Below are positions 38,907 to 53,010 of a stretch of 64,000 nucleotides of DNA, one piece after another. Within the stretch, counting starts at the first letter, position 1, and each line of letters begins with the position of its first letter. The notes under the pieces were generated by a model. It made no database searches. It was not told the origin of the DNA and saw only the letters and a program-made list of their open reading frames with translations. The position numbers and the translations under genes were made by a program. Origin of the DNA: Candidatus Poribacteria bacterium (GTDB lineage: Bacteria > Poribacteria > WGA-4E > WGA-3G); NCBI GenBank assembly GCA_965242965.1, contig OZ251518.1, positions 4,064,001 through 4,128,000 on the forward strand, read 5' to 3'.

Positions 38907-39686
38907 ATGTTGAAATTTATGAACGTATTCGCCCTCATCATCGTGCTAGTTGCGGGATGCGTCTTTAGCGTCCAAGGCGCGAAGGATGATTGCGAAAATA
39001 TCGATGGCAAGGGCGCGAAGCCTATCAAAGAAGTCGGCAAGGAAGACGATGGCGTTCAAAACGATTACGACGAAGTCGTCGAAGAGGACGAACGCAAGGG
39101 TGTCACCTACCTCTCCCTCATCGGGGGAAGTTCGCCGAAACCGAACGATTGTGGACTCAACCCGAAAAATAAGGAAGATGAGTGGACAGGCTGGGGTGGC
39201 CCGCTGGATACAGACAACGCGACTATCGGCGAAGGTATCGGCACGCGGAACGAAATCGTCATCGGTGGCATCTATTTTCCGCGCGGCATCGGCACGCATA
39301 CCATCGGCACGCTCGTCTATGATCTTTCCGGTGATAACTACCTCAAATTTGAGGGATACATCGGCATGGCAGACGAGAAGGACCCGGCCGAGTGCGGACA
39401 CGGCGGCAGCGGCGATTTCATCTTTAGCATCGATGGCAAGGAAGTCTACGCCTCCGAAAAACTCCAAGGTACCGAAGACGGAAAGAATGTCGACGCGGTA
39501 AAAGTTGAGCTTGACATTCCGGCGAACGCCAAAGAATTGGAGATTATCATGGGTGATGGCGGCGATGGACTCGGCTGCGATCATTCCGCTATTGGCGATG
39601 CGAAGTTGCTCAACGCGCAAGCACTCGCCGTTGAACCGGCGAATAAACTGCCGACGATTTGGGGCCACCTGAAGTCTCAGTATTAA
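38907..39686 (+). CDS. Secreted NPCBM/NEW2-domain protein
   Basis: IVIGGIYFPRGIGTH...LVYDLSG...FEGYIG...DHSAIGDAKL; C-terminal AVEPANKLPTIWGHLK; SD AGGAGG. Confidence 0.8.
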   Translation: MLKFMNVFALIIVLVAGCVFSVQGAKDDCENIDGKGAKPIKEVGKEDDGVQNDYDEVVEEDERKGVTYLSLIGGSSPKPNDCGLNPKNKEDEWTGWGGPLDTDNATIGEGIGTRNEIVIGGIYFPRGIGTHTIGTLVYDLSGDNYLKFEGYIGMADEKDPAECGHGGSGDFIFSIDGKEVYASEKLQGTEDGKNVDAVKVELDIPANAKELEIIMGDGGDGLGCDHSAIGDAKLLNAQALAVEPANKLPTIWGHLKSQY

Positions 39687-39714
39687 ACACCGCCGTGATA
39701 CGAAGAACCGTTTT

Positions 39715-40165
39715 TTTATCGTAGCGCGGGGGCGTTTTTTATCGTAGCGCGGGGGCCTGTCCCCCGCGATCGTTTCAGGTCCCGGAGCGGGTTTCCTCGC
39801 GATCTCGGCATGGCGAGGGACAGGCCCTCGCCCTACGATGCAGGGAGGCGTTTTTTTATCGTAGCGCGGGGGCCTGTCCCCCGCGATCGTTTCAGGCTCC
39901 GTAGCGGGTTTCCTCGCGATCTCGGCATGGCGAGGGACAGGCCCTCGCCCTACGGTGCAGGGGGCGTTTTTTATCGTAGGGCTTGGGCCCTCGGATGCCA
40001 CACGCGCATCCGAGCGGGTTTCCCCCGCGATCGTTTCAGGCTCCGTAGCGGGTTTCCTCGCGATCTCGGCATGGCGAGGGACAGGCCCTCGCCCTACGAT
40101 GAGGGTGGTGTTTTTTTCGTAGACGCGCCGTCCTATTGCATCAAAACCAGGAGGGCTCTCCTACG
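39715..40165. repeat. Tandem array of three REP-doublet units
   Basis: GTAG REP, spacer CGTTTCAGG..CCG.AGCGGGTTTCCTCGCGATCTCGGCA, then inverted REP, repeated three times. Confidence 0.88.
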
Positions 40166-40241
40166 GATACACGTTTTTCCTTGCAATTTTATTTTCGTTG
40201 TGTTATCATATTAACAATTCTTGTTCATAAGGAGAAAATTT

Positions 40242-41009
40242 ATGAAAACAGTTATCTTAACCCTCGGCGTGCTGGTTTTCAGCCTCATCGCGGCGCACAT
40301 CAGCACCGCCGAGATTGATATGGAGACAGCCGTCGGCATTTGGCTCTTTGACGAAGGAAAAGGCGATGTTGCCGGCGATCTGTCTGACGCAGGAAACGAG
40401 GGCGAATTGGTGGAATCTCCCGCCTGGGTGAAAGGCAAATTCGGGATGGCTCTTGAATTTGATGGGAAAGCCAGCTGCGTCAAAACCGAACAGAAACTCC
40501 TCGATAGTTTAGAAGAATTCACGATTATCACGTGGATAAAGACCGGCGACATCACCGCGAATCGTATCGGCCTCGTCGGGCAAAACGATGCACCGGAATT
40601 CGGGTTCGGGAACCCGAAGGAACTGGCACTCTGGACACCCACCTCCGGTTGGAACCCGCACCCGTGGAAATTGAAGCACGGCGATGGCGAGTGGCACCAC
40701 GTCGGATGTGTCGCCACAACGGACTATGTCCACGTCTACATTGACGGCGAATACGAGGAAAAGAAGGGCGGCTGGGCAAATCACGGCGCGTCCGGTTTTA
40801 ACGTCAATATCGGCGGCTGCGGCGTGTGGGATCCCAATGGCAACTTTTTCACCGGTGCCATGGACGAAGTCGCTATCTTCCACTCCGCACTAGAGCAAGA
40901 GGATATCCAGACGTTGATGGGCGGATTCAATGCCTATTTGGCGGTTGAACCGGCCAATAAACTGAGCGTCACATGGGGACATCTGAAGGCGAATCATCAT
41001 TTTCGGTAG
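40242..41009 (+). CDS. Secreted LamG-like protein (tandem paralog 1)
   Basis: VGIWLFDEGKG, GKFGMALEFDG, WHHVG, FTGAMDEVAIF, AVEPANKLSVTWGHLK; SD AAGGAG. Confidence 0.87.
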   Translation: MKTVILTLGVLVFSLIAAHISTAEIDMETAVGIWLFDEGKGDVAGDLSDAGNEGELVESPAWVKGKFGMALEFDGKASCVKTEQKLLDSLEEFTIITWIKTGDITANRIGLVGQNDAPEFGFGNPKELALWTPTSGWNPHPWKLKHGDGEWHHVGCVATTDYVHVYIDGEYEEKKGGWANHGASGFNVNIGGCGVWDPNGNFFTGAMDEVAIFHSALEQEDIQTLMGGFNAYLAVEPANKLSVTWGHLKANHHFR

Positions 41010-41081
41010 AGCGAGCTCGCATCGGTAGGCGCGCTTACAAACCGCGCCTATCGGTTATCATTTCATAAAGGAGAAAAACGT

Positions 41082-41849
41082 ATGAGAAAAGTTATCTTAA
41101 CCCTCGGCGTGCTGGTGTTCAGCCTCATCGCGGCACACATCAGCACCGCCGAGATTGATATGGAGACAGCCGTCGGCATTTGGCTCTTTGATGAAGGCAA
41201 AGGCGATGTTGCCGGTGACCTGTCTGACGCAGGAAACGAGGGTGAACTCGTCAAGTCGCCCGCTTGGGTGAAAGGCAAATTCGGGATGGCTCTCGAATTT
41301 GACGGGAAAGCCAGCTGCGTCAAAACCGAACAGAAACTCCTTGATAGTTTAGAGGAGTTTACGATTATCCTGTGGGTGCAGACCGGGGACATCACCGCGA
41401 ATCGTATCGGCCTCGTCGGGCAAAACGATTCGCCAGAATTCGGGTTTATCAATCCGAACGAGTTGAACCTCTGGACACCCACCGCCGGTGGAACTTCAAA
41501 CCCGTGGGAATTCAAGCACGATGATGGCGAGTGGCACCACGTCGGATGTGTCGCCACGACAGACTATGTCCACGTCTATATTGATGGTGAATATGTTGAG
41601 AAGAAGGGCGGCTGGGCAAATCACGGCGCGTCTAATTTCAACGTCAACATCGGCGGCTGCGGCGTGTGGGACCCCGATGGTAACTTTTTCACCGGTGCTA
41701 TAGACGAAGTCGCCATCTTCCACTCTGCGCTGGAGCAAGAGGATATCCAGACGTTAATGGATGGATTCCAGACCTACTTGGCAGTTGAACCTGCCAATAA
41801 GTTGAGTGTGACGTGGGGACATCTGAAAAAGGTTAACCATTTCCGGTAA
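41082..41849 (+). CDS. Secreted LamG-like protein (tandem paralog 2)
   Basis: Highly similar to 40242-41009. Confidence 0.87.
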   Translation: MRKVILTLGVLVFSLIAAHISTAEIDMETAVGIWLFDEGKGDVAGDLSDAGNEGELVKSPAWVKGKFGMALEFDGKASCVKTEQKLLDSLEEFTIILWVQTGDITANRIGLVGQNDSPEFGFINPNELNLWTPTAGGTSNPWEFKHDDGEWHHVGCVATTDYVHVYIDGEYVEKKGGWANHGASNFNVNIGGCGVWDPDGNFFTGAIDEVAIFHSALEQEDIQTLMDGFQTYLAVEPANKLSVTWGHLKKVNHFR

Positions 41850-41874
41850 CGTTGTCGAAAACGTTCCATATTCA

Positions 41875-42372
41875 CGTAGGGCGAGGGCCTGTCCCTCGCC
41901 ATCCAACGATCGCGGGGGACAGGCCCCCGCGCTACGGTGTCCGGAACGGCCTCCCTTTACCGTAGGGCGAGGGCCTGTCCCTCGCCACGCACCGATCGCG
42001 AGAAAACCCGATCGCAGGCCGAAGACCACGCGCTCCGGGGCCTGAAACGATCGCGGGGGACAGGCCCCCGCGCTACGGTATTCGGAACGGCCTCCCTTAC
42101 CGTAGGGCGAGGGCCTGTCCCTCGCCATGCACCGATCGCGAAGAAACTCGCTCGGAACGGAGCTTGAAACGATCGCGGGGGACAGGCCCCCGCGCTACGG
42201 TGTCCGGAGCGGTCTCCTTTTACCGTAGGGCGAGGGCCTGTCCCTCGCCATCCAACAACCGCGCGCAAAACAGGCCCCCGCGCTAAGCCCATCTCTGTAG
42301 TTTGTGATCGCCTGATCACAAACGGTTCAGGATCTGGCGATCCTGACCTACAGAGGTGATGCAGTCTGACAG
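41875..42372. repeat. REP doublet array plus double-hairpin element
   Basis: Alternating GTAGGGCGAGGGCCTGTCCCTCGCC and GATCGCGGGGGACAGGCCCCCGCGCTAC; double hairpin at 42297-42351. Confidence 0.88.
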
Positions 42373-42404
42373 CCCGCCGGTAACGTGCTGTTTTTGCACA
42401 CAAA

Positions 42405-42623
42405 ATGAACATACAAGAAATGCTAACGCAGGAGATGCGTGAACTGCGCCGCTGCAACCCCGCGTTTCACGAACTTTTGAATGAACTTCTTCATTACAAA
42501 GACGGCACCGGAAATTATTCGGTCGACCGGCACAAGAAGTTGGACGAAGAGCCGGATATTGAGACGCTCGCAGCGCGAATCCAACGCAGACGCGAAACCG
42601 CGCAGAAGAACGAAAACGCGTAA
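42405..42623 (+). CDS. Small hypothetical protein
   Basis: 72-aa ORF directly upstream of the RM gene; no motif recognised. Confidence 0.45.
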   Translation: MNIQEMLTQEMRELRRCNPAFHELLNELLHYKDGTGNYSVDRHKKLDEEPDIETLAARIQRRRETAQKNENA

Positions 42624-42685
42624 ACGAAAACCACACGGTAGGCGCGCTTACAAACCCGCGCCTACCAACACGATTTCACACGATT

Positions 42686-45600
42686 ATGCCAACACTTAAA
42701 CTCAAACCCACACATGCCGCCATCACCGAATACTACACGGCGCAGGAACGATACGCACGACAGAACGTCACCCGCGAAACAGCCGTGCGCGGCGCATTCA
42801 TCCCACTGCTAGAAACCTGCGCACGCCAAATGCAGTGGACACTCCTCCTCGAAGAGCCACTCCATACGCAACAAAACCGCAGAATTGTCATTGACGGTGT
42901 GCTTGTTGACGATTTCCGATTGCCGCAAGGTTACTACGAAGCGAAGGATATCCTCGATGATCTCGATGCCGAAATTGACAAGAAAATCGCCGCGGGCTAC
43001 CCACTTGACAATACCCTCTTCCAAAACCCCGAACGCGCGGTGCTTTATCAAAACGGCGAGATGGTGATGGAGGCAGACTTGGCGGATGCGGAACAACTGG
43101 TCGAAATCCTCAAGGCGTTTTGTGCCTACCGTTCCGATAACGTCACCGAATGGCAGGCGGCGGTGGCGGACTTCAAAACGCAGGTGCGCGCACTCGGACA
43201 ACGGGCGACGCGCCTCATCCAAGCCGAACTGCAGCAGAACCCACACTTTCAAGAGGTGTTCACCACTTTTCACCAACACTGCCGAGATTCAATCAACCCC
43301 AATCTCTCTACCGCCGCGGTGGAGGAGATGTTGGTGCAACACCTGCTGATAGAACGAACGTTCCGGACCGTTTTCAATAACCCCGATTTCACGCAGCGGA
43401 ACGTCATCGCGCGCGAAATCGCGAACGTTACCCAAGTGTTAATGGAACGGATGCCCAGTTCCGGCGAATTCCTCAAACCGTTGGACCGGTTTTATGACAC
43501 CATCGAACGCACCGCCGCCGATTTGAAGGACTTCTCCCAAAAACAGCACTTCCTTAACACCGTCTATGAGCAGTTCTTCCAAGGCTTTTCGGTTGACGTG
43601 GCGGATACGCACGGCATCGTCTACACCCCGCAACCTATCGTCAGTTTCATGGTGAAAAGCGTTGAACAGATTCTGCAAACCGAGTTTAACCGTTCGCTTT
43701 CGGATGCCGGGGTGCATCTCATCGACGCGTTCGTCGGCACCGGCAATTTCATCGTGCATCTCATGCGCGAAATCGGCGACAAAAGCAAAATCGCACTGAT
43801 GGACAAATACGCCGAGGGACTCTGGTGCAACGAGGTCTTGCTCTTACCCTATTACATCGCAACGCTCAACATCGAACACGAATTCTACGTCGCCACCGGG
43901 ACATACCGCCCCTTTGAAGGCATCTGTCTCGTCGATACGTTTGACTTGGCGGAAGGGAGACAGGCGGAGATGTTCGCGCCTGACAATACGCAACGCGTGG
44001 AGAAGCAGAAGGCTGCACCGATGTTCGTCGTCATCGGAAATCCACCCTATAACGCTGGACAAATCAACGAAAACGATAACAATAAGAATCGAAAGTATCC
44101 AGCAATGGATGCACGCGTGAAAGAGACATACGCGCAAGCCTCCAACGAGCAAAATAAAAAGCCTCTCGCGGACGCGTATGTTAAAGGACTCCGGTGGGCT
44201 TCCGACAGAATCGGCAAGGAAGGCATCGTCGCTGTCGTCACAAACAACAGTTTTCTTGACGGTAGAGCATTTGATGGAATGCGGAAACATCTGGCGCAGG
44301 ATTTCACCAAAATTTACCACCTCAATTTTAAGGGGAATGCGCGCACCTCCGGGGAACGCCGCCGAAAGGAGGGAGGTAACGTTTTTGACGATGAAATCCG
44401 TGTCGGCATCGGGATAAGTTTCTTCATCAAAAAGGCGCAACCGAAATCGGAACCTGCGGAAGTGTGGCTTTACCACGTTGACGACTATCTCAAGGCACGT
44501 GATAAGCAGGAACTCTTAATGCAATTCGGGGACTATACAAAAGTTCCGATGAAACAGGTAACGCCTGATTCAAGGCACACTTGGCTCACAGAGGATTTGC
44601 GTCCCGAATTTGAGACTTTTCTCCCTATGGGGAGCAAGAAAGCAAAAAAAGGCGAAGGAAATACCATTTTCGGCACTTTCTGCTGCGGTTTGCAAACTGC
44701 AAGAGATGTGTGGTGTTATCATTTCGACCGGGACGAACTCGCGCGAAACATGCGCGCGATGATTGACACCTACAACGGGGAGGTTTTCAGATGGGAACGG
44801 CGCACGAACCTAGATGAACAACTTGACTCCTTTGTAATTTCTGATAAGCAGAAAATTAGTTGGAGTTCGGCGTTAAAAAGTCATCTCCGGCGCGGACGCA
44901 TTGCGGAATTTTCAGAAGAGAAAATTCGCCAAGCACTCTATCGTCCCTTCACGAAAATGCATCTTTTCTTCGATCGCATTCTTGATCATGCCGTTTTTCT
45001 GTTCCCATCCATTTTCCCGACTCCCGAAACGGAAGGGGAGAATCGGGTGATATGTGTCAAGGCACCGGGTTCAACCAAACCTTTTCACGCGCTGATGACT
45101 GACATCATTCCTGATTACCATTTCACAGGGGATTCTCGGTGCTTTCCGTTCTATACTTACGATGAGGATGGGACGAATCGGCGTGAGAACATCACGGATT
45201 GGGCATTGGCGGCGTTCCGTTCGCATTACGGCGATGCTTCGATCACGAAGTGGGATATTTTCAACTATACTTACGGGCTGTTGCATCATCCTGCGTATGG
45301 CGAGACGTATCGGGCGAATTTGATGCGCGATTTGCCGCATATCCCGTTTGCGGCAGATTTCTGGGCATTTGCGAAGGCGGGTGCGCGGTTGGCAGAGTTG
45401 CATGTTGACTATGAGTCGCAGCCGGAGTATCCGTTGCGTTTGGCGGAGAATCCTGATGCCTCTCCCGATTGGCGCGTGGAGAAGATGAAGTTGTCGAGGG
45501 ACAAGACAGAGATTCGGTATAATGCGTGGTTAACGCTGGCGGACATTCCTGCGGCTGCGTTTTCGTATCGGTTGGGAGCGCGTTCGGCGTTGGAGTGGGT

Positions 45601-45760
45601 TGTGGAGCAGTATCGTGTCAAACGCAATGACCCGAGTGGCATCGTGAACGATGCGAATTGTTTGGGTTCGGAGCGCGCTATCGTGCGGCATCTCTGTCAG
45701 GTGACATGGGTGAGTTTAGAGACGGTTCGGGTTGTTTCGGGTTTGCCGGGGTTGATTTGA
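42686..45760 (+). CDS. Single-polypeptide restriction-modification enzyme (Type IIG-like; m6A MTase with Type ISP-like specificity domain, no helicase)
   Basis: N-terminal IDG...YYEAKD nuclease-like motif; HGIVYTPQPIV, motif I DAFVGTGNF, motif IV GNPPY; YRPFTK, RRENITDWAL, Y.YGLLHHP.Y..Y..NL..DLPHIP, Y.LG.RSALEWVVEQY. Confidence 0.88.
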   Translation: MPTLKLKPTHAAITEYYTAQERYARQNVTRETAVRGAFIPLLETCARQMQWTLLLEEPLHTQQNRRIVIDGVLVDDFRLPQGYYEAKDILDDLDAEIDKKIAAGYPLDNTLFQNPERAVLYQNGEMVMEADLADAEQLVEILKAFCAYRSDNVTEWQAAVADFKTQVRALGQRATRLIQAELQQNPHFQEVFTTFHQHCRDSINPNLSTAAVEEMLVQHLLIERTFRTVFNNPDFTQRNVIAREIANVTQVLMERMPSSGEFLKPLDRFYDTIERTAADLKDFSQKQHFLNTVYEQFFQGFSVDVADTHGIVYTPQPIVSFMVKSVEQILQTEFNRSLSDAGVHLIDAFVGTGNFIVHLMREIGDKSKIALMDKYAEGLWCNEVLLLPYYIATLNIEHEFYVATGTYRPFEGICLVDTFDLAEGRQAEMFAPDNTQRVEKQKAAPMFVVIGNPPYNAGQINENDNNKNRKYPAMDARVKETYAQASNEQNKKPLADAYVKGLRWASDRIGKEGIVAVVTNNSFLDGRAFDGMRKHLAQDFTKIYHLNFKGNARTSGERRRKEGGNVFDDEIRVGIGISFFIKKAQPKSEPAEVWLYHVDDYLKARDKQELLMQFGDYTKVPMKQVTPDSRHTWLTEDLRPEFETFLPMGSKKAKKGEGNTIFGTFCCGLQTARDVWCYHFDRDELARNMRAMIDTYNGEVFRWERRTNLDEQLDSFVISDKQKISWSSALKSHLRRGRIAEFSEEKIRQALYRPFTKMHLFFDRILDHAVFLFPSIFPTPETEGENRVICVKAPGSTKPFHALMTDIIPDYHFTGDSRCFPFYTYDEDGTNRRENITDWALAAFRSHYGDASITKWDIFNYTYGLLHHPAYGETYRANLMRDLPHIPFAADFWAFAKAGARLAELHVDYESQPEYPLRLAENPDASPDWRVEKMKLSRDKTEIRYNAWLTLADIPAAAFSYRLGARSALEWVVEQYRVKRNDPSGIVNDANCLGSERAIVRHLCQVTWVSLETVRVVSGLPGLI

Positions 45761-45833: not shown

Positions 45834-46364
45834 ATGAAAGGCGTTGTTGTTTTGCTAGTGGCGTTGTTTTTGGCTGTGCCTGCGCACGGCCAGGTCAGCG
45901 AAGAAAGGCTTGAGCAGATTATGAACCGGGCTCTTGAGCCGGTGCTGAACGAACTCCGTGAACTGAACGTAAAGTTTCACAAACTGGAAGCAAAGGTCCA
46001 CGCATTGGAAGCAAAGGTCCACGAACTGGAAGTGGAGCTCATCGTGGTAAAAGAGACTGTCCAAAAGGGGGAGATTGCGTTAAGCGGGCTGACGAGCGAG
46101 GTCCGCGGGAACGGGACCCGGATTACCGATGTGCGCGAGCAACTGACTTGGCAGTCAACTGGGCTGTTAACGGTGTCAGGCTTGCTGGTGACGTTGCTGC
46201 TGTGGGTCCTCAAGAAGGTATGGGATGAGCGTCGCGCAGACCGCGCTGAGTTGGCGGCGCAGCAGGCAGAACTTGTTCGGTTGCGCGCCGAGAACGAACG
46301 GCTCAAACCCCAAATTATTACGGAACGTGGGGGTGCCGCGAATGTTTCTGGGAACGTGCCTTAA
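45834..46364 (+). CDS. Hypothetical coiled-coil membrane protein
   Basis: Signal peptide, LEAKVH repeats, one TM helix, C-terminal coiled coil; SD GGAGG; upstream TTGCAA-N17-TAAATT. Confidence 0.7.
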   Translation: MKGVVVLLVALFLAVPAHGQVSEERLEQIMNRALEPVLNELRELNVKFHKLEAKVHALEAKVHELEVELIVVKETVQKGEIALSGLTSEVRGNGTRITDVREQLTWQSTGLLTVSGLLVTLLLWVLKKVWDERRADRAELAAQQAELVRLRAENERLKPQIITERGGAANVSGNVP

Positions 46365-46429
46365 CGGGGTGAATCGAGACCGGGAGGTCTCTCCTACCGG
46401 GAACAAAGCAATATCCGAGGAAGGGAAAG

Positions 46430-48037
46430 ATGGCAACTACCAGATATTTTGAGACTCGGGGGCCGGTGGATGCGGCGTTGCACTACGTCGTGCCTCGGAC
46501 GGCGGAGTTAGCCGATTTCATCGCGCGCGTCAAACTGGGGCGGTATATCGTGATTTTCGCGCCGCGCCAGACAGGCAAGACGACGTTTTTCCGGTGGGCC
46601 CTAGCCGCGCTCGCAGCGGAAGACACAACCTATTTTCCGATTCATCTGGATTTTGAGGCGTATAAAAACTACTCGCCTGCCGATTTCTACGCCAATCTCC
46701 ACGAAGATATTCTTGAGGAGATTGAGGACGTTTTCCAGCAGCGGGGCATCGCGATGCCGGATGCCTTAACGGCGTTTTTAGCGGATGCGACGCTCACAGA
46801 TCACGTTGCCATGATAAGGTTTTTTAGAAGGTTCGCGCGTTTGCTAGGAAAGCCGCGGATTGTCCTTCTCATCGACGAATTTGATGGCATCCCGCAGGCA
46901 CTCGTGAGTGATTTTCTGTATGCACTCCGCCGTGTGTATGTCTCAAAGCGTCTTGATGACAGGGCTCCCTATAGCGTCGGCATCGTCGGTGTCAAGAACA
47001 TCACACAGTTGAACTACGATAGGACTATCTCGCCGTTTAATATCCAAGAGGAGTTCCACTTACCCAACTTCACGTTGGCACAAGTGCAGGAACTGTTCGG
47101 ACAGTATACCGCTGAAGTCGGACAACCGTTTGAACCGGCAGTCGTTGAAACCCTGCATCGGCAGACAGCCGGACAGCCGTTTCTCGTCAACCGCCTCGCG
47201 CAACTCCTCACACAGGAACCGGAGATACCGAGAACGGAGACAATCTCATTGACGCACTTCGCTGCAGCACACGCCACCGTTCTCGTGGAAGATAATGTCA
47301 ACATCCAACATCTGCGCGCCAATGTTCGCCGAAACCCGCGGTTTGAAAACCTCCTCATGAACATCGCCTTATCAGAGGACGGTGTCCTTTTCACGTTTGA
47401 CAACGAAGTCATGAGCGAACTTGCAACTTACGGTGTCATCGCCCGGGGAACCGATGGCATGTGTGAGATTGTCAATCCTATTTATCTTTACCGTATCTTG
47501 CGAACCTTCGCGCCGCTCGTCAACGGCTTAGAAGCCGACTACTACCCCGAGGACACGCGTGGGGGTAGTCACTACCTCACTTCTGATGGACAGTTGCAGA
47601 TGGACAGGCTCATGGAGAACTTCCGCGATTTCATCGCCCGCGTCGGGTTCAGGATACTGGAGGTGCCACAGACACCGCGGGAATATGTAGGACAACGCCT
47701 GCTGTTCGCCTATCTCGAACAGGTAGTGAAGCAGCAAGGCGGCGGGATGTTCCTTGAGGTGCCGACAGGGCGCGGCCGCATGGATTTACTCGTCGTCCAC
47801 CGCGGCCGCAAATATATCGTAGAAACGAAGATTTGGCACGGCACAGCGAGTTATGCAGATGGCAAGCGGCAGCTTGCCAAGTATCTCACGCTTGAGGATG
47901 CCGCCGAGGGATATTACCTCGTCTTCGATCACCGGCAGCAGCCGCAGCCCCGGACGGAAACCGAACAGATAGAGGGCAAGACGCTCCGGAGCTATGTCAT
48001 TCCTATCGTCCAAGAACGCCCATCGGACGCGGTATAG
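46430..48037 (+). CDS. AAA-like ATPase fused to C-terminal PD-(D/E)XK nuclease-like domain, copy 1
   Basis: Walker A APRQTGKTT, Walker B LLIDEFD, SPFNI, GQPFLVN; C-terminal LEVPTGRGRMDL...YIVETKIW...QLAKYL. Confidence 0.85.
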   Translation: MATTRYFETRGPVDAALHYVVPRTAELADFIARVKLGRYIVIFAPRQTGKTTFFRWALAALAAEDTTYFPIHLDFEAYKNYSPADFYANLHEDILEEIEDVFQQRGIAMPDALTAFLADATLTDHVAMIRFFRRFARLLGKPRIVLLIDEFDGIPQALVSDFLYALRRVYVSKRLDDRAPYSVGIVGVKNITQLNYDRTISPFNIQEEFHLPNFTLAQVQELFGQYTAEVGQPFEPAVVETLHRQTAGQPFLVNRLAQLLTQEPEIPRTETISLTHFAAAHATVLVEDNVNIQHLRANVRRNPRFENLLMNIALSEDGVLFTFDNEVMSELATYGVIARGTDGMCEIVNPIYLYRILRTFAPLVNGLEADYYPEDTRGGSHYLTSDGQLQMDRLMENFRDFIARVGFRILEVPQTPREYVGQRLLFAYLEQVVKQQGGGMFLEVPTGRGRMDLLVVHRGRKYIVETKIWHGTASYADGKRQLAKYLTLEDAAEGYYLVFDHRQQPQPRTETEQIEGKTLRSYVIPIVQERPSDAV

Positions 48038-48091
48038 CCACGCGTGTTATTCCACGGACGAGACTAGTTATCAACAAGGAGGCAAAAACTG

Positions 48092-49693
48092 ATGGCAACC
48101 CGATATTTTGAGACTCGAGGGCCCGTGGATGCGGCGTTGCACTACGTCGTGCCTCGGACGGTGGAGTTAGCCGATTTCATCGCGCGCGTCAAACTGGGGC
48201 GGTATATCGTTATCTTCGCGCCGCGCCAGACGGGCAAGACGACGTTCTTCCGGACAGCCCTGAAAACGTTGCTAGTTGAGGAGCCAAACTACTGTCCTAT
48301 TGAACTCAATTTCCAGGTGTATAAAAACGTCACACCGACTGCATTCTACGCGCATTTCTCGCAGAAGTTGCGCGAGGAAATTGAGAATGTCTTCCAAAAA
48401 CGGCAAGCGGTTGTTCCGGAGGCGTTGCACCGTTTGTTGGAGGAGTCAGTGCTAACCGATCATCTTGCGATGTTGGATTTCTTCAAACGTCTGGGGCGGG
48501 TGTTAGCCCCACAGCGGTTTGTCCTCATCATCGACGAGTTTGATGGTATTCCGCCGGCAATCGTGAGCGATTTTTTGTATGTGTTGCGGCAGACGTATCA
48601 TGAGGCGTTGGCTTCGCGGTGTCCGTTCAGTCTGGGGCTCGTGGGTGTGAAGGACCTCACGCAGTTGAACTACGACAGAACGATTTCGCCGTTCAATATC
48701 CAAGATGAGTTCTACTTGCCCAGCTTCACGTTGGAACAGGTGCAGGAACTGCTCGGACAGTATACCGCTGAAGTCGGACAACCGTTTGCCCCAAAGGTAA
48801 TCGAGACGTTGCATCGGCAGACAGGGGGGCAGCCCTTTCTCGTGAATCGTTTCGCGCAACTCCTCACACAGGAACTGGAGATACCTAAAACGGAGACTGT
48901 CTCACTAACGCACTTCGCGGTAGCACATGCCGCCGTTCTCGTGGAAGATAATGTCAACATCCAGCATCTGCGCGCCAATGTCCGACGAAACCCGCGGTTT
49001 GAACGTCTCCTTATGAACATCGCCTTATCAGAGAACGGCGTGCTCTTCACGCGTGACAACGAAGTCATGAGCGCACTTGCAACTTACGGTGTCATCGCCC
49101 GGGGAACCGATGGCATGTGTGAGATTGTCAATCCCATTTATCTTTACCGTATCCTGCGAACCTTCGCGCCACTCGTGAATGGCTTAGAAGCCGACTACTA
49201 CCCCGAGGACACACGTAGTGGTAGTCACTACCTCACCGCCGATGGACAGCTGCGGATGGATAGGCTCATGGAGAACTTCCGCGACTTCATCGCCCGCGTC
49301 GGGTTCAGAATTCTGAATGTGCCGGAGACACCGCGGGAATATGTAGGGCAACGCCTGCTGTTCGCCTATCTCGAACAGGTGGTAAAGCAGCAAGGCGGCG
49401 GGATGTACCTCGAAGTGCCGACAGGACGCGGCCGCATGGATTTACTCGTCGTTCACCGCGGCCGCAAATATATCGTAGAAACGAAGATTTGGCACGGCAC
49501 CGCGAGGTATGAAGCCGGCAAACAGCAACTCGCCAAGTATCTGACAGTCGAGCAGGCTGCCGAGGGATATTATCTCGTCTTCGATCATCGGCAGCAGCCA
49601 CAGCCGCGGACAGAAACCGAGCAGATAGAAGGCAGAACGCTCCGGAGCTATGTCATTCCTATCGTCCAAGAACGCCCATCGAACACCGCGTAA
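48092..49693 (+). CDS. AAA-like ATPase / PD-(D/E)XK nuclease, copy 2
   Basis: Same motifs; SD AAGGAGG. Confidence 0.85.
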   Translation: MATRYFETRGPVDAALHYVVPRTVELADFIARVKLGRYIVIFAPRQTGKTTFFRTALKTLLVEEPNYCPIELNFQVYKNVTPTAFYAHFSQKLREEIENVFQKRQAVVPEALHRLLEESVLTDHLAMLDFFKRLGRVLAPQRFVLIIDEFDGIPPAIVSDFLYVLRQTYHEALASRCPFSLGLVGVKDLTQLNYDRTISPFNIQDEFYLPSFTLEQVQELLGQYTAEVGQPFAPKVIETLHRQTGGQPFLVNRFAQLLTQELEIPKTETVSLTHFAVAHAAVLVEDNVNIQHLRANVRRNPRFERLLMNIALSENGVLFTRDNEVMSALATYGVIARGTDGMCEIVNPIYLYRILRTFAPLVNGLEADYYPEDTRSGSHYLTADGQLRMDRLMENFRDFIARVGFRILNVPETPREYVGQRLLFAYLEQVVKQQGGGMYLEVPTGRGRMDLLVVHRGRKYIVETKIWHGTARYEAGKQQLAKYLTVEQAAEGYYLVFDHRQQPQPRTETEQIEGRTLRSYVIPIVQERPSNTA

Positions 49694-49748
49694 ACTCGCG
49701 GGGTGTGCGCTAGGAGGAACACCGCTACCCGCTAAGGAGGAAACAATT

Positions 49749-51350
49749 ATGGCAACCCGATATTTTGAGACGCAGGGACCGGTAGATGCCGCCGTAAACT
49801 ACGTTGTCTCCCGGCAATCGGAACGCGCCGATTTCATCCAGCGCGTCAAGCGCGGGCGATACATTGTCATGTTCGCACCACGGCAAACAGGAAAAACGAC
49901 GTTCTTCCGGTGGGCCCTAGCCGAACTCGCGGCAGAAGACGCAACCTATTTTCCGATTCAATTCAATTTTGATGTGTATGAAGGCCGGCCCGCCGCCCGG
50001 TTTTATCCGCATTTCGCTAAAAAACTCCGCGAGGCAATTGAGGGAGTCTTCTACGAGCGTGACATCAAGCTGCCTCCGCCGCTCGCACAGTTTTTAGCGG
50101 ACGCGACGATAGCCGACCAGGTAGATATGCTAGATTTCTTTCAGGCGTTGGGACGGCATCTCACCGACTATCGCGTCGTGCTACTGATAGACGAGTTTGA
50201 TGGCATCCCGCCTGAGGCAGTGACAGGGTTTCTTCACGCACTCCGTCATATCTATATTTCCGGTGTCGCGGCTCGGTGTCCTTATAGCGTCGGCATCATC
50301 GGGGTGAAGAACGTCGTGCAACTGAACTACGATAGGACGATTTCGCCGTTTAATATACAAGAGGAGTTCCACTTACCCAACTTCACGTTGGAGCAGGTGC
50401 AGGAACTGCTCGGACAGTATACCGCTGAAGTCGGACAGCCGTTTGACCCGGCAGTCGTTGAAACCCTGCATCGGCAGAGCGGGGGGCAACCGTTTCTCGT
50501 CAATCGCCTCGCGCAACTCCTTACACAGGAACTGGAGATACCGAAAACGGAGACTGTCTCACTGACGCACTTCGCGGCAGCACATGCCGCCGTGCTGGTG
50601 GAAGATAACGTCAACATCCAGCATCTGCGCGCCAATGTCCGACGAAATCCGCGGTTTGAACGCCTCCTCATGAACATCGCCTTATCAGAAAACGGCGTGC
50701 TCTTCACGCGTGACAACGAAGTCATGAGCGAACTTGCAACGTATGGTGTCATCGCCCGGGGAACCGATGGCATGTGTGAGATTGTTAATCCCATTTATCT
50801 TTACCGTATCCTGCGAACCTTCGCACCACTCGTCAACGGCTTAGAAGCCGACTATTTCCCCGCCGACACCGGCGGCGCAGGACACTACCTCACCGCCGAA
50901 GGGCAGCTGCGAATGGACAGGCTCATGGAGAACTTCCGCGACTTCATCGCCCGCGTCGGGTTCAGAATTCTGAATGTGCCGGAGACACCGCGGGAATATG
51001 TGGGACAACGCCTGCTGTTCGCCTATCTCGAACAGGTGGTGAAGCAGCAAGGCGGCGGGATGTACCTTGAAGTGCCGACAGGGCGCGGCCGCATGGATTT
51101 ACTCGTCGTTCACCGCGGCCGCAAATATATCGTAGAAACGAAGATTTGGCACGGCGCAGAGAGGTATGCAGCCGGCAAACGGCAACTCGCCAAGTATCTC
51201 GCGCTAGAAGATGCCGCCGAGGGATATTACCTCGTCTTCGATCACCGGCAACAGCCACAGCCGCGTACGGAAACCGAGCAGATAGAAGGCAGAACGCTCC
51301 GGAGTTATGTCATCCCCATCGTCCAAGAACGCCCATCGGACACCGCGTAA
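49749..51350 (+). CDS. AAA-like ATPase / PD-(D/E)XK nuclease, copy 3
   Basis: Same motifs; start at ATG 49749 after SD AAGGAGG. Confidence 0.85.
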   Translation: MATRYFETQGPVDAAVNYVVSRQSERADFIQRVKRGRYIVMFAPRQTGKTTFFRWALAELAAEDATYFPIQFNFDVYEGRPAARFYPHFAKKLREAIEGVFYERDIKLPPPLAQFLADATIADQVDMLDFFQALGRHLTDYRVVLLIDEFDGIPPEAVTGFLHALRHIYISGVAARCPYSVGIIGVKNVVQLNYDRTISPFNIQEEFHLPNFTLEQVQELLGQYTAEVGQPFDPAVVETLHRQSGGQPFLVNRLAQLLTQELEIPKTETVSLTHFAAAHAAVLVEDNVNIQHLRANVRRNPRFERLLMNIALSENGVLFTRDNEVMSELATYGVIARGTDGMCEIVNPIYLYRILRTFAPLVNGLEADYFPADTGGAGHYLTAEGQLRMDRLMENFRDFIARVGFRILNVPETPREYVGQRLLFAYLEQVVKQQGGGMYLEVPTGRGRMDLLVVHRGRKYIVETKIWHGAERYAAGKRQLAKYLALEDAAEGYYLVFDHRQQPQPRTETEQIEGRTLRSYVIPIVQERPSDTA

Positions 51351-51405
51351 GCGCGCGGGGTGTTCGCTATGAGGAGCACCGCTATCCGCTAAGGAGGAAA
51401 CAGTT

Positions 51406-53010
51406 ATGGCAACCCGATATTTTGAGACGCAGGGACCGGTAGATGCCGCCGTGAACTACGTTGTCTCCCGTCAATCGGAACGCGCCGATTTCATTCAGCG
51501 CGTCAAGCGCGGGCGATACATCGTCATGTTCGCACCACGGCAAACAGGAAAAACGACGTTCTTCCACGCCGCCCTGGAGACGCTTGCGGCAGAAGAGCCC
51601 ACCTACTTTCCTATCGCCCTCAATTTTGAGGAATATGAAGGCCTCACTGCCCCCGATTTTTACGAGGGGCTCCGTGAAGATATATTGGCAGCAATAGAGA
51701 ACACGTTTCATCAACGTGGCAGCGAACCTTCTGAGGCATTATCGCGATTTCTGGCGGAGGCGCAGATAACAAACCATATTGCCATGAGACGATTTCTTAG
51801 CCGGTTCGCGCGTTTTTTGGATGGGCAGCGGGTTGTCCTGCTCATTGATGAATTTGATGGCATCCCATCAGATGCGGTGATGGGGTTCCTCCATTCTCTC
51901 CGCCGTGTCTATGTCTCCGAGCCGCGCGACACTCGGTGTCCCTATAGTGTCTGTATCGTGGGGGTGAAGAACGTCGCGCAGTTGAATTACGATAGGACGA
52001 TTTCGCCGTTTAATATCCAAGAGGAGTTCCATTTGCCCGGCTTCACGTTGGAACAAGTGCAAGAACTGCTCGGACAGTATACCGCTGAAGTCGGACAATC
52101 GTTTGAACCCGAAGTCCTCGCAACGCTGCAGCGGCAGACAGGCGGACAACCGTTTCTCGTCAACCGCCTCGCGCAACTCCTCACACAGGAACTGGACATC
52201 CCCAAAGACATCACCATTTCCCTGGAACACTTTGCCCAGGCACATCAGAAACTCTTGATGGAAGACAATGTCAACTTTAATCATTTGACGACGAATGTCC
52301 AGCGAGACCCGAGATTTGAACACCTGTTGATGCGCATTGCTTCCTCGGCGCAACCCATCAGTTTCAATCCCTGGAATGATGTCATGAAGGAACTCGCAAC
52401 CTACGGTGTCATCGCGAAAGCGAACGATGGCAAATGTGAGATTGTCAATCCCATCTATCAGTATTGCGTCATCCGGGCATTTCAGCGGGAAATTAACGGT
52501 TTAGAAGGGGACTACTTCCCTGCGACTACCCGCACCGGGTATCAGGATTATCTCACCCCAACCGGCGACATCGCCCTGGCACCCTTGCTAGACAATTTTC
52601 GCGATTTCATCGTGCGTGCGGGGTTTCGGCTCCTCCACGTGCCGCAGCTCCCCCGGGAATCGGTGGGCCAACACCTCTTGGCGGCTTACCTCGATGGCTT
52701 TGTGAAAGCCGTCGGCGGTTTCCTCTATCTTGAAGTACCAACCGGACGGGGCCGGATAGATATGATCATCCTCCACAACCGGCGCAAGTATATCGTGGAG
52801 ACGAAGATATGGGGGGGCGCAGGACATTATGAAGCCGGAAAGAAACAACTCGTTGCATATCTCACGCTTGAGGATGCCGCCGAGGGATATTATCTCGTCT
52901 TCGATCACCGGCAGCAGCCGCAGCCGCTTACGGAAACCGAGCAGATAGAGGGCAGAACGCTCCGGAGCTATGTCATTCCCATCATCCAAGAACGCCCATC
53001 GGACGCTTGA
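51406..53010 (+). CDS. AAA-like ATPase / PD-(D/E)XK nuclease, copy 4
   Basis: Same motifs; more divergent middle and nuclease region; SD AAGGAGG. Confidence 0.85.
   Translation: MATRYFETQGPVDAAVNYVVSRQSERADFIQRVKRGRYIVMFAPRQTGKTTFFHAALETLAAEEPTYFPIALNFEEYEGLTAPDFYEGLREDILAAIENTFHQRGSEPSEALSRFLAEAQITNHIAMRRFLSRFARFLDGQRVVLLIDEFDGIPSDAVMGFLHSLRRVYVSEPRDTRCPYSVCIVGVKNVAQLNYDRTISPFNIQEEFHLPGFTLEQVQELLGQYTAEVGQSFEPEVLATLQRQTGGQPFLVNRLAQLLTQELDIPKDITISLEHFAQAHQKLLMEDNVNFNHLTTNVQRDPRFEHLLMRIASSAQPISFNPWNDVMKELATYGVIAKANDGKCEIVNPIYQYCVIRAFQREINGLEGDYFPATTRTGYQDYLTPTGDIALAPLLDNFRDFIVRAGFRLLHVPQLPRESVGQHLLAAYLDGFVKAVGGFLYLEVPTGRGRIDMIILHNRRKYIVETKIWGGAGHYEAGKKQLVAYLTLEDAAEGYYLVFDHRQQPQPLTETEQIEGRTLRSYVIPIIQERPSDA

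Follow-up and report, generated by a model that had tools for sequence, protein, structure and literature searches.

Fusions of an AAA-type ATPase and a PD-(D/E)XK nuclease form a widespread, frequently multi-copy and uncharacterised group, with examples in AAA_35/DUF8371, in DUF1703 and among the archaeal ATPases. The closest described case is DUF1703 in the symbiont Cardinium cCpun, where the family has expanded to at least 25 diverged paralogs in one genome (Siozios et al. 2019, PMC6387759). The account of the family in that paper describes intragenic recombination among the paralogs, independent expansions in scattered lineages and an unknown function; an action of the secreted nucleases on the host has been proposed, the paper suggests a role in symbiosis, and no homogenisation of the paralogs figures in it. 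The locus analysed here, four tandem genes (g1 to g4) in a 64,000-nucleotide stretch of a contig from a sponge symbiont, a Candidatus Poribacteria bacterium (the window), resembles DUF1703 (AAA-ATPase_like, PF09820, and PDDEXK_9, PF08011) in the single chain with its C-terminal nuclease and in the many recombining paralogs of one symbiont genome. It differs in that the tails are homogenised within arrays, and in a discrete variable insert in the ATPase core that the account of DUF1703 does not describe (PMC6387759). PF09820 and PF08011 gave no match in g1-g4 at E <= 0.01. Since they do match some relatives (16/65 and 9/65, respectively), the two groups look like sister families rather than one family.

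Other known proteins resemble parts of the chain. Residues 1 to about 350 find their best structural match in archaeal Walker-type ATPases (Pfam ATPase_2, PF01637; 2qen, PABY2304, and 2fna, SSO1545), with Foldseek E values for the g1 model of 2e-10 for 2qen (TM 0.64 on the target) and 5e-8 for 2fna, and PF01637 matches 14 of 65 relatives. However, 2qen and 2fna have no PD-(D/E)XK domain, and their function is unknown too. The order of AAA+ core, lid and winged helix recalls Orc1/Cdc6, as do the additional helices that follow beta2 and precede the Walker B strand; a helical insertion at this position is the specific motif of the initiator AAA+ clade. By model and fold search, three predicted helices lie between beta2 and beta3 of the window proteins, where they may correspond to that motif, and Orc1/Cdc6 are among the top fold matches. 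The acidic insert, the attached nuclease and about 20 copies per genome set the window proteins apart from Orc1/Cdc6, and the sequence relation is very weak (ORC4, profile E 1.3e-4). McrBC also couples an AAA+ NTPase to a PD-(D/E)XK nuclease, and the McrC nuclease is the best C-terminal match (6hz4_M, E 7.9e-5), but McrB and McrC are separate proteins whereas the window proteins are single-chain. McrB hydrolyses GTP, belongs to a different AAA+ clade and reads DNA through a separate N-terminal domain, and the McrB and McrC models of Pfam and PADLOC found no match in g1-g4.

The initial annotation had likened the genes to STAND/Avs effectors. An NTPase joined to a nuclease effector is indeed shared, and the window proteins carry two marks by which STAND proteins are defined, a pair of acidic residues in Walker B (D149-E150) and a G-x-P motif where the lid starts (G248-x-P250). 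Nevertheless, they have no TPR, WD40 or LRR sensor (Pfam and the model reveal none of these repeats in g1-g4, and the Avs models of PADLOC were unmatched), their variable part lies within the NTPase domain, and the fold is nearer to the archaeal ATPases and Orc1/Cdc6, which speaks against kinship with Avs. nSTAND1 is touched by 1 of 65 relatives.

Four tandem genes for ATPase-nuclease fusions

Positions 46430-53010 hold four intact head-to-tail ORFs on the + strand, with start-to-start distances of 1662, 1657 and 1657 bp and spacers of 54-55 nt. The start of g3 was set at the ATG homologous to that of the other copies, preceded by an AAGGAGG site; the longer ORF begins at 49650.

46430-48037, + strand: g1, 535 aa; AAA_35 AAA+ module, lid, winged helix and PD-(D/E)XK nuclease (DUF8371)
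46559-46585, + strand: Walker A of g1, APRQTGKTT, residues 44-52; same motif in g2-g4
46871-46885, + strand: Walker B of g1, IDEFD, residues 148-152
47600-48004, + strand: predicted PD-(D/E)XK nuclease domain of g1, residues 391-525, with E443, D452, E465, K467 and Q481
48092-49693, + strand: g2, 533 aa; N-terminus as in g1, own insert type, tail about 90% identical to those of g1 and g3
49749-51350, + strand: g3, 533 aa; N-terminus as in g4, own insert type, tail about 90% identical to those of g1 and g2
51406-53010, + strand: g4, 534 aa; own insert type, divergent tail at residues 256-480

By alignment, APRQTGKTT and IDEFD recur in all four genes, as does D452...E465-x-K467 (g1 numbering) near the C-terminus, so that the tandem arrangement, spacing and motifs noticed at first inspection are borne out. 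Pfam AAA_35 (PF14516) scores 50.0, 57.5, 53.3 and 55.8 bits on g1 to g4, against a gathering cut-off of 27, and matches 55 of 65 relatives. PF28130.1 is among the precomputed domains of a protein identical to g1 (P0151) and of nearly all close homologs; we use the atlas name DUF8371 for PF28130, an assignment taken from the precomputed domain listing. The full AF2 model of g1 (pLDDT 88.4) has as its top Foldseek matches 2qen, 2qby_A, 2v1u_A, RuvB, ORC4 and 2fna, with RFC and Cdc6 also matched. Motifs, model and fold matches agree on the features of an AAA+ protein, namely Walker A (GK[ST]), Walker B (hhhhDE) and a helical lid that comes after an alpha/beta core. G49, K50, D149 and P250 (lid motif G248-Q-P250) are invariant in the 65 relatives, and T51, E150, E443, D452, E465 and K467 are conserved in at least 90% of them.

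The nuclease domain was modelled with a pLDDT of 86.5 as an alpha-beta-beta-beta-alpha-beta core: helix 417-435, strands 439-445, 450-457 (carrying D452) and 460-468 (carrying E465 and K467), helix 472-488 and strand 493-500. The D on strand 2 and the (D/E)xK on strand 3 are those of the PD-(D/E)XK superfamily, and E443, D452, E465, K467 and Q481 are invariant across the 19 full-length paralogs of the genome. In Foldseek the domain matches McrC first, then OkrAI, SfsA, Bax1, Can1, Hjc and Cas4, and every listed match at E <= 0.001 is a nuclease of this superfamily. Among the 65 relatives, PDDEXK_3 is matched as often as PDDEXK_9 (9/65), and NucS_C in 3/65. Altogether, Pfam, models and fold matches confirm an NTPase joined to a PD-(D/E)XK nuclease. 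The predicted structure establishes a single chain that begins with an AAA+ module like those of Orc1/Cdc6 and the archaeal ATPases, continues through a helical lid and a winged helix, and ends in a McrC/Hjc-like nuclease; its Walker A and B motifs and its catalytic residues are intact.

Repeated genes may be mis-assembled, and none of the public short-read contigs bridges the whole array. However, the copies differ from one another at 10-50% of their nucleotides, and contigs from the runs of three studies individually cover all four variable blocks; therefore, an assembly artefact is very unlikely as the source of the array, and we give it next to no weight. The length of the contig that carries the array (5.66 Mb) also speaks against it, as do the records of insert types paired by contig: g2-type and g3-type insert proteins are both recorded for a contig of the identical length, 5,736,848 bases, and g1 and g2 types, likewise g3 and g4 types, are recorded together on other contigs.

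A variable insert within the ATPase domain

The conservation profile over the 19 paralogs, the model and the helical periodicity together delimit the variable block of g1; the limits in the other copies are approximate and come from the alignment.

46586-46999, + strand: variable block of g1, residues 53-190
46640-46849, + strand: variable core of g1, residues 71-140, with predicted helices 83-105, 111-119 and 125-138
48245-48655, + strand: variable block of g2
49902-50312, + strand: variable block of g3
51559-51972, + strand: variable block of g4

Over the roughly 140 residues that follow Walker A, every pair of g1-g4 shares 48-76% of nucleotides and 27-73% of amino acids, in keeping with the strong divergence of all four copies first noted there. 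In the AF2 model of g1 the core folds into an insert of three helices that follows beta2 (68-74) and precedes the Walker B strand (143-149), which places the variable part within the NTPase domain rather than in a separate repeat domain. Mean pairwise identity among the 19 paralogs is 0.33-0.45 over residues 71-140 and mostly 0.53-0.83 elsewhere; a second patch of low identity, residues 311-330 (0.44), falls in the winged helix. Variability along the insert has a period of 90-100 degrees and its sole invariant residues are hydrophobic: one face is hydrophobic and conserved, and the exposed face is variable. The net charge of the variable core ranges from -7 to +2 (mean -2.6) across the 19 paralogs, and that of the winged-helix patch from -7 to 0 (mean -3.6).

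Each insert of g1-g4 has counterparts that are 91-100% identical in proteins of other genomes. Single-linkage clustering of 138 sequences at 80% identity gave 27 insert clusters, 16 tail clusters and one middle-segment cluster. Moreover, omega was 0.12-0.15 within an insert type, compared with 0.11-0.18 in other gene segments, and 0.16-0.28 between types, where dS is saturated; these values give no sign of diversifying selection within or between types, and because of the saturation past positive selection can be neither demonstrated nor excluded by the comparison between types. Judged by these sequence comparisons, the insert is not hypervariable but consists of discrete, old types under purifying selection. 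The idea that the copies are distinct specificity types on one chassis agrees with this, since the types look discrete, old and conserved across genomes.

Mosaic genes and homogenised tails

The near-identity of g1-g3 downstream of the block holds at about 90% of nucleotides from residue 191 or so to the end, but, contrary to what the initial annotation had supposed, the insert is not the only variable segment. The identity of g4 to g1-g3 over residues 256-480 is 0.45-0.70 at the protein level, and dS over this segment is 1.8-2.1 between g4 and the others versus 0.22-0.34 among g1-g3. The first 52 residues likewise exist in two types, one in g1 and g2 and the other in g3 and g4, with dS of 0.22 and 0.11 within a type and 1.7-1.85 between types. 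Among 9453 pairs, 48 have a common insert type with tails less than 75% identical; the converse, inserts below 60% identity on tails of at least 90%, holds for 104. In trees of the tails the members of an array group together (support 100/100, 100/99 and 96/99), whereas the tree of the inserts has a star shape and puts the four window genes in a clade of their own in 2% of bootstrap replicates. At the syntenic locus of a genome of the same genus (G002) there is one gene versus four here; it resembles g1 in its N-terminus (0.77) and insert (0.86), and its tail is 0.81 identical to that of g4 and 0.62 to that of g1. The alignments and trees thus reveal the genes as mosaics, and indicate that tails are homogenised within an array by gene conversion and that arrays grow or collapse. 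Recombination in the conserved flanks of the insert reshuffles inserts and tails.

A genome-wide family and its neighbourhoods

The array does not stand as a self-contained four-gene system. The genome holds a family of about 20 genes, arrayed or single: 19 full-length paralogs, a truncated copy of 364 aa and a fragment of 258 bp. Most copies are singletons among unrelated genes, most have their own extended -10-like sequences, and the N-termini inspected are hydrophilic and look unlike signal peptides. Of 18 further genomes in its taxonomic family, 17 have AAA_35/DUF8371 genes (1-23 matches apiece), as do 2 of 12 genomes from the other three families of the order. By homology and distribution, g1-g4 are the local part of a lineage-specific expansion of standalone AAA_35/DUF8371 genes in one poribacterial family. 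REP-like repeats lie near several copies.

Upstream of the array are two genes.

42686-45760, + strand: Type IIG-like restriction-modification gene, 1024 aa, neighbour with no partnership implied
45834-46364, + strand: small coiled-coil protein with hydrophobic segments, 176 aa, syntenic in G002

The Type IIG-like gene, already seen from the sequence, is confirmed by PADLOC (REase_MTase_IIG, E 1e-234) and Pfam (Type_ISP_C, ISP_coupler, N6_Mtase). It is 1 of 28 such genes in the genome, and 4 of 58 family loci have one within 6 kb versus about 3.2 expected, which is no enrichment. The coiled-coil protein does not accompany the gene family at other loci. In PADLOC-DB 2.0.0 no named or candidate system matches g1-g4, the best matches being mad8 (E 3.8e-4 over 52 residues) and PDC-S54 (E 5.5e-4 over 44). 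The copies mostly sit beside housekeeping genes (polysaccharide synthesis, GlnE, Maf, an AMP-binding enzyme), and some beside Type IIG genes, an XPB/DUF790 pair with an HSDR_N protein, methylases, PIN or HEPN proteins. At 22 loci with titles that make no mention of Poribacteria, PADLOC matches 12 of the 115 neighbours at E <= 1e-8; most of these are generic (RecQ-like helicase, cyclase, radical SAM), and the only specific-looking ones are PDC-S01 with PDC-S27 at one locus (L038) and PDC-S27 at another (L031). Neither these 22 loci, nor the Type IIG count at 58 loci, nor the mixed contexts in this genome indicate defence-island enrichment. The reading of the array as a defence system is weakened by these results, and since PADLOC gives no match, Type IIG genes are not enriched, the fold is not that of Avs and diversifying selection is not seen, we put a role in defence no higher than plausible.

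What the insert may do

We propose that the locus belongs to a recombining AAA_35/DUF8371 repertoire in which the insert sets specificity, probably for use in conflict, and we give this explanation as a whole a probability of about 0.5. The window proteins would act as ATP-regulated DNA endonucleases, and the exposed, mostly acidic face of the insert would set what each paralog recognises or responds to, perhaps joined by the second variable patch in the winged helix. A protein or other non-DNA ligand appears a more likely target for the insert than the DNA backbone. On that view the roughly 20 paralogs would be a germline repertoire, with a range of specificities built on a single effector chassis, most likely directed at foreign DNA or phages in the sponge environment. 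The NTPase-nuclease architecture, the variation in copy number and the defence-type neighbours at some loci are consistent with a conflict role. We speculate further, and hold this as a doubtful but possible extension, that the insert is a swappable specificity cassette in the AAA+ core that provides at least 20 specificities for one ATP-gated nuclease, an innate-immunity design undescribed for any defence system. The conserved flanks (the Walker A region and the part from residue 191 or so) would let recombination move such a cassette between chassis, and the same flanks would let arrays expand or collapse. The logic is comparable to that of HsdS in type I restriction, whose target-recognition domains are shuffled.

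In any case, the locus offers a testable site of specificity: an exposed helical insert of about 70 residues, of discrete conserved types and shuffled by recombination. If swapping inserts alters responses, it would reveal a new means by which bacteria assemble recognition repertoires, and a large DUF family, prominent in sponge symbionts, giant sulfur bacteria and filamentous Chloroflexota, would gain a function. Should swapping alter nothing, the genes are still a clear example of concerted evolution beside protected divergence in one gene.

Two alternatives assign the insert another task. It could lie at or near the AAA+ subunit interface and insulate the 20 or so paralogs from one another by blocking mixed, poisoned oligomers, the target being set elsewhere or shared. 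In AAA+ rings the beta2-beta3 segment faces the neighbouring subunit and the central channel, many near-identical chassis appear to coexist in one cell, and discrete, conserved types are what matched interfaces would be expected to give. However, paralogs share their first 52 residues and their tails without restriction, which would leave most of any interface uninsulated, and we find this reading unlikely. Alternatively, the insert might correspond to the initiator-specific motif of Orc1/Cdc6 and, with the winged helix, read DNA sequence, structure or modification; the family would on this reading consist of ATP-dependent restriction-like or modification-dependent endonucleases with differing sites. 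The two most variable patches fall in the beta2-beta3 insert and the winged helix, which in Orc1 are the two DNA-contacting elements. Orc1/Cdc6-DNA complexes (2qby_A, 2v1u_A) are among the best fold matches, and the nuclease domain is like McrC and type II enzymes. Yet the negative mean charges of both patches are unlike a surface that holds the DNA backbone, and this alternative seems to us improbable.

Other explanations dispense with recognition in conflict altogether. The genes might serve a chromosomal DNA transaction, such as the processing of repair or recombination intermediates, or act on the host. Hjc and Bax1 are indeed among the nuclease fold matches, most copies sit amid ordinary genes with extended -10-like sequences of their own, and a symbiosis role has been suggested for the sister family DUF1703 (PMC6387759). 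About 20 diverged copies, varying from 0 to 23 among related genomes, would nevertheless misfit a core function, and the array is dispensable, judging from the one gene at the syntenic locus. Action on the host moreover accords poorly with N-termini that do not resemble signal peptides; we regard a role outside conflict as quite improbable. There is also a slim chance that these are selfish or mobile genes that owe their spread to the nuclease they encode or to some associated element. The genome has many dispersed copies, 18 of the 19 full-length ones lie on one strand, and the REP-like repeats could be read in the same way. Against this, nothing is conserved past the ORF ends except these short repeats, of which the genome contains about 1,840 and 4,880, the neighbourhoods have no transposase or integrase partner, and relatives were not found in viral contigs with the patterns used. 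The paralogs are, finally, 59-65% identical to one another, a level that does not point to recent spread.

Mosaic divergence of the four-gene array

The four array genes (g1-g4) are arranged as follows:

46430-48037, + strand: g1, intact ORF
48092-49693, + strand: g2, intact ORF
49749-51350, + strand: g3, intact ORF, with an ATG matching that of the other copies and an AAGGAGG site ahead of it
51406-53010, + strand: g4, intact ORF

Start-to-start distances are 1662, 1657 and 1657 bp, the spacers measure 54-55 nt, and the alignment places APRQTGKTT, IDEFD and the C-terminal D...ExK in all four proteins. ORFs and alignment agree with the initial annotation, which had described four intact genes with this spacing and these motifs. 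A longer ORF for g3 opens at 49650. A scan for promoters and terminators gave signals at or below chance.

The array had also been described as carrying one variable block. Residues 53-190 (numbering of g1 throughout) do differ in every pair, with nucleotide identity of 48-76%, dS of 1.25-2.7 and dN of 0.29-0.45, and this part of the claim stands. The block is not alone in varying, however. Residues 1-52 occur as two types, g1=g2 and g3=g4 (dS 0.22 and 0.11 within types, 1.7-1.85 between them), and over residues 256-480 g1-g3 are similar (dS 0.22-0.34) whereas g4 is divergent (dS 1.8-2.1). Residues 191-255 and 481-535 are similar across the four genes (dS 0.30-0.79). We read g1-g4 as a mosaic produced by recombination or gene conversion, rather than as otherwise uniform genes with one variable block. 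The dN/dS analysis proposed earlier was run on the four genes; because dS between insert types is saturated (1.25-2.7), its between-type values are uninformative.

Block types and their exchange between genes

For every one of the four blocks, other genomes encode counterparts that are 91-100% identical in amino acids and often attached to a different tail, the tail being the C-terminal part after the conserved middle segment. For example, the database protein P0171 combines a g1-type block (0.95) with a g4-type tail (0.91), and P0198 a g3-type block (0.98) with a tail nearest that of g4 (0.83). We compared 138 sequences, namely 19 from the genome containing the window (G000) and the 119 best database matches to g1, a sample skewed towards g1. 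At an 80% identity threshold, single-linkage clustering gave 27 clusters for the blocks, 16 for the tails and one for residues 191-255. Among the 9453 pairs, 48 had a common block and tails less than 75% identical, and 104 had tails at least 90% identical and blocks less than 60% identical. Moreover, the maximum-likelihood trees of blocks and tails of the 19 paralogs are in conflict. In the tail tree, array members fall together according to their location (support of 100/100 for g1-g3, 100/99 for the 5358 pair and 96/99 for the 3584 trio), on terminal branches of 0.011-0.082; the median terminal branch of the block tree is 0.39, and 2% of its bootstrap trees recover the window array as monophyletic. 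Within a single type, g1 compared with its ortholog in a genome of the same genus (G002), omega was 0.12 over the whole block and 0.15 over the block core, against 0.11-0.18 over the other segments. The cross-genome counterparts, the clusters, the tree conflict and the low omega together indicate that the blocks are not hypervariable but old, discrete and kept by purifying selection, and that the gene outside the block evolves in concert within arrays. We regard discrete types, recombination and concerted evolution as established here.

A contig of X6, a public sponge-associated sequencing run, joins 48256 to 51571 and thereby links an N-terminus of the g2 type, at codon 55 right after Walker A, to an insert of the g4 type. 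This join resembles the chimera type of database proteins such as P0164; as the contigs are short, it hints only weakly at a recombinant from a different strain.

A genome-wide family with a polymorphic array

The initial annotation treated the array as a self-standing four-gene system. It turned out to be part of a genome-wide family, since G000 (5.70 Mb, two contigs) carries 19 full-length copies (530-579 aa), together with one copy truncated at 364 aa and one 258-bp fragment. Paralogs outside the window array are 59-65% identical to g1, and two further arrays lie on the 5.66-Mb contig, C1:

C1:3,584,918-3,589,814: three-copy family array with overlapping ATGA stop/start codons
C1:5,358,888-5,362,107: two-copy family array

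The gene family is present in 17 of the 18 other genomes of the same taxonomic family, with 1-23 matches per genome, and in 2 of 12 genomes spread over the order's three remaining families. Distant full-length relatives (25-40% identity) amount to 145 cluster representatives at E <= 1e-30; in species-representative genomes, searched with a 12-sequence alignment as query, they are multi-copy per genome in Thiomargarita/Thiotrichaceae and in Caldilineaceae/Anaerolineae. In viral contigs, none of the 40 matches to the patterns used was a relative. Source names of close homologs put the organism in Candidatus Poribacteria, and the database names of these proteins are only 'hypothetical' or 'AAA-like domain-containing'.

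On C1, 18 of the 19 full-length copies, and 13 of 14 loci when the truncated copy is included, lie on the + strand, against a ratio of 1187:1184 for the long ORFs of G000; in related genomes the copies are on mixed strands. Along the contig, cumulative GC skew bottoms out at 0.19 Mb and peaks at 5.65 Mb, and therefore lacks the ordinary two-replichore shape.

The window neighbourhood is kept in G002, which has two LamG-like genes, the Type IIG gene, the 176-aa coiled-coil gene that in the window precedes g1, and then Kelch and TPR genes. This syntenic locus holds one family gene, versus four in G000. Its N-terminus (0.77) and block (0.86) are g1-like and its tail is g4-like (0.81 versus 0.62 for g1), which is what recombination within the conserved middle segment would be expected to yield, whether by collapsing a four-gene array or by seeding one. 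As to whether the array itself might be an assembly artefact, all four blocks were found in contigs of runs from three studies, and database records suggest that the block types g1+g2, g2+g3, g1+g3 and g3+g4 lie together on contigs of other assemblies. The contigs of four public runs are all short pieces, none of which spans the whole array. We put the chance of an artefact close to nil. Elsewhere in the window, ORF translations at 40221-41009 and 41082-41849 give tandem secreted proteins of ~260 aa, highly similar to each other; G002 has the pair too, at 86% and 93% identity to the 40221-41009 protein.

Protein architecture and the variable insert

In Pfam searches g1-g4 match AAA_35 above threshold and NERD, at the C-terminus, below it. 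Precomputed annotation adds PF28130 (named DUF8371), so that g1-g4 are members of AAA_35 and, on that annotation, of DUF8371. A full-length AlphaFold2 model built on an alignment of 65 sequences (pLDDT 88.4) matches, over residues 1 to ~350, the archaeal Walker-type ATPases 2qen and 2fna, Orc1/Cdc6, ORC4, RuvB and RFC; because of these fold matches, the region is predicted to be an AAA+ core with lid and winged helix. The C-terminal domain, modelled alone (pLDDT 86.5), best matches the McrC nuclease domain (E 7.9e-5), followed by OkrAI, SfsA, Bax1, Can1, Hjc and Cas4. Residues E443, D452, E465, K467 and Q481 fall on canonical nuclease elements, are invariant in the 19 paralogs and are each at least 90% conserved among the 65 relatives, whose Pfam matches also include AAA-ATPase_like (16), ATPase_2 (14), PDDEXK_9 (9), PDDEXK_3 (9) and NucS_C (3). 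Domain order and catalytic motifs are established by these results. As the motifs are intact and the residues conserved in paralogs and relatives, the predicted ATPase and nuclease centres both look functional.

The earlier proposal that the variable part lies within the ATPase fold is borne out by the model, which shows the block as three helices (83-105, 111-119 and 125-138) that follow strand beta2 (68-74) and precede the Walker B strand (143-149). We count the position and nature of the insert among the established results. This position is the site of the specific insertion in initiator-clade AAA+ proteins. Over the 19 paralogs, mean pairwise identity is 0.33-0.45 at residues 71-140 and mostly 0.53-0.83 elsewhere, with a second low-identity patch (0.44) at residues 311-330, in the winged helix. 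Variability within the block has a helical periodicity of 90-100 degrees, and its invariant residues are all hydrophobic (F86, Y87, L113, L117, F131, L139). Judged from this residue pattern rather than from coordinates, one face of the block is probably conserved and buried, the other variable and exposed. The variable core is acidic on average (net charge -7 to +2, mean -2.6), as is the winged-helix patch (mean -3.6), which argues against a reader of the DNA backbone and speaks for recognition of a protein, of some other ligand or of a site elsewhere in the assembly. In the paralog at G000:C1:2239891-2241630 (L007:7392-9131), an in-frame insertion of ~30 residues sits where the variable insert ends, immediately ahead of the Walker B strand, and leaves the frame open.

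Neighbouring genes and repeats

The array had been noted to sit behind a restriction gene. The position is correct but uninformative about function, because the Type IIG family is 28-fold in G000 (Type_ISP_C matches, nearly all open frames of ~1,000-1,160 aa) and shows no enrichment near family loci. Other genomes supplied 58 family loci for comparison (57 titled Poribacteria, one 'uncultured bacterium'). Of these, 4 have a Type IIG-like gene no more than 6 kb away, versus ~3.2 expected from the G000 density, and at none is it upstream on the same strand. We therefore rejected the Type IIG gene as a functional partner. Twenty-eight such enzymes in one 5.7-Mb genome make an unusually large battery. 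The 176-aa coiled-coil gene was likewise discarded as a partner: two of its nine G000 paralogs have a family copy less than 2 kb away, and the 58 loci contain no such gene.

The flanks of the family genes have nothing in common but short REP-like repeats. Two REP/MITE-like hairpin repeats, of the GAGACC-N-GGAGG...CTCTCCTAC and GCGAGGGACAGGCCC types, number ~1,840 and ~4,880 copies in G000, and in the window such repeats lie at:

46364-46403: REP/MITE-like repeats
38946-42636: REP/MITE-like repeats

Being this abundant across the genome, they were rejected as family-linked, and the family genes are therefore not part of a larger mobile unit; none was found when the flanks were searched for one. 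Selfish spread of the copies seems very improbable to us. The repeats also give spurious repeat-peptide ORFs at 38.9-42.6 kb and explain a depth spike of more than a million at 46288-46531 in public sponge-associated runs.

PADLOC and NCBIfam gave no significant match for g1-g4, and the PADLOC result leaves the array outside the named defence systems among which the initial annotation had proposed to look. Some G000 copies do have neighbours of defence type. The copy at C1:583,680 has a second Type_ISP_C/N6_Mtase gene directly upstream, and the three-copy array is preceded by:

L012:531-6815 (G000:C1 ~3,578,530-3,584,815): a 938-aa Tubulin_2 + HSDR_N protein, an uncharacterised 217-aa protein, and an XPB-like helicase with a DUF790 (Bax1-like) nuclease

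On its downstream side this array is followed by an N6_N4 methylase gene, and the surrounding L012 genes may form a defence or repair island. Other G000 copies have PIN and HEPN/nucleotidyltransferase genes nearby. Of the 115 neighbours at the 22 loci with no Poribacteria in their titles, 12 match PADLOC at E <= 1e-8; most matches are generic, the only specific-looking ones being PDC-S01 and PDC-S27 in L038 and PDC-S27 in L031. A single 706-aa frame (L009:2066-4186, - strand; G000:C1 ~2,873,065-2,875,185) matches all three DnaN beta-clamp domains (1-384) and then the FtsZ/tubulin GTPase and FtsZ_C domains (393-706), and represents an unusual fusion or else a read-through of two genes.

Possible mechanism and relation to known systems

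We infer that ATP binding or hydrolysis by an oligomer would gate a DNA endonuclease, and that each paralog would owe the specificity of its response to the exposed insert. Taken as a whole, this interpretation has, in our estimate, a probability of about 0.5, defence against foreign DNA or phages being its most likely use. Architecture and evolutionary behaviour fit a conflict system, and direct support is thin. The insert could instead serve insulation, keeping paralogs from forming mixed oligomers, which we consider unlikely. To much the same degree we doubt that insert and winged helix read DNA as Orc1 does, an idea weakened by the acidic charge of both. A role outside conflict, or one aimed at the host, is slightly less probable again; the remaining G000 copies lie among polysaccharide, nitrogen-regulation and other ordinary genes.

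Among the papers listed in our literature searches, none reported a function for this AAA_35/DUF8371 architecture, and the words 'ATPase' and 'nuclease' are absent from the text of PMC5649159. The review PMC10952713 lists PF09820 in RADAR RdrA, PARIS and Old-tin; no PADLOC model of these three systems matched g1-g4. Like McrBC, the array proteins join an AAA+ NTPase with a nuclease of McrC type, but tested against the definition of McrBC they fall outside it. With STAND/Avs, which had been cited as common anti-phage NTPase-nuclease fusions, the likeness is one of logic, and g1-g4 fall outside that group as well. What appears to be new is a discrete cassette within the ATPase core, shielded from the homogenisation that acts on the remaining gene. 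The nearest described phenomenon is the expansion of DUF1703 (AAA-ATPase_like + PDDEXK_9) in the insect symbiont Cardinium cCpun, for which the sections consulted of PMC6387759 describe at least 25 diverged, recombining paralogs, independent expansions in other lineages and an unknown function. The two Pfam models of DUF1703 are unmatched by g1-g4 but matched by some of the 65 relatives, and DUF1703 is therefore a sister family.
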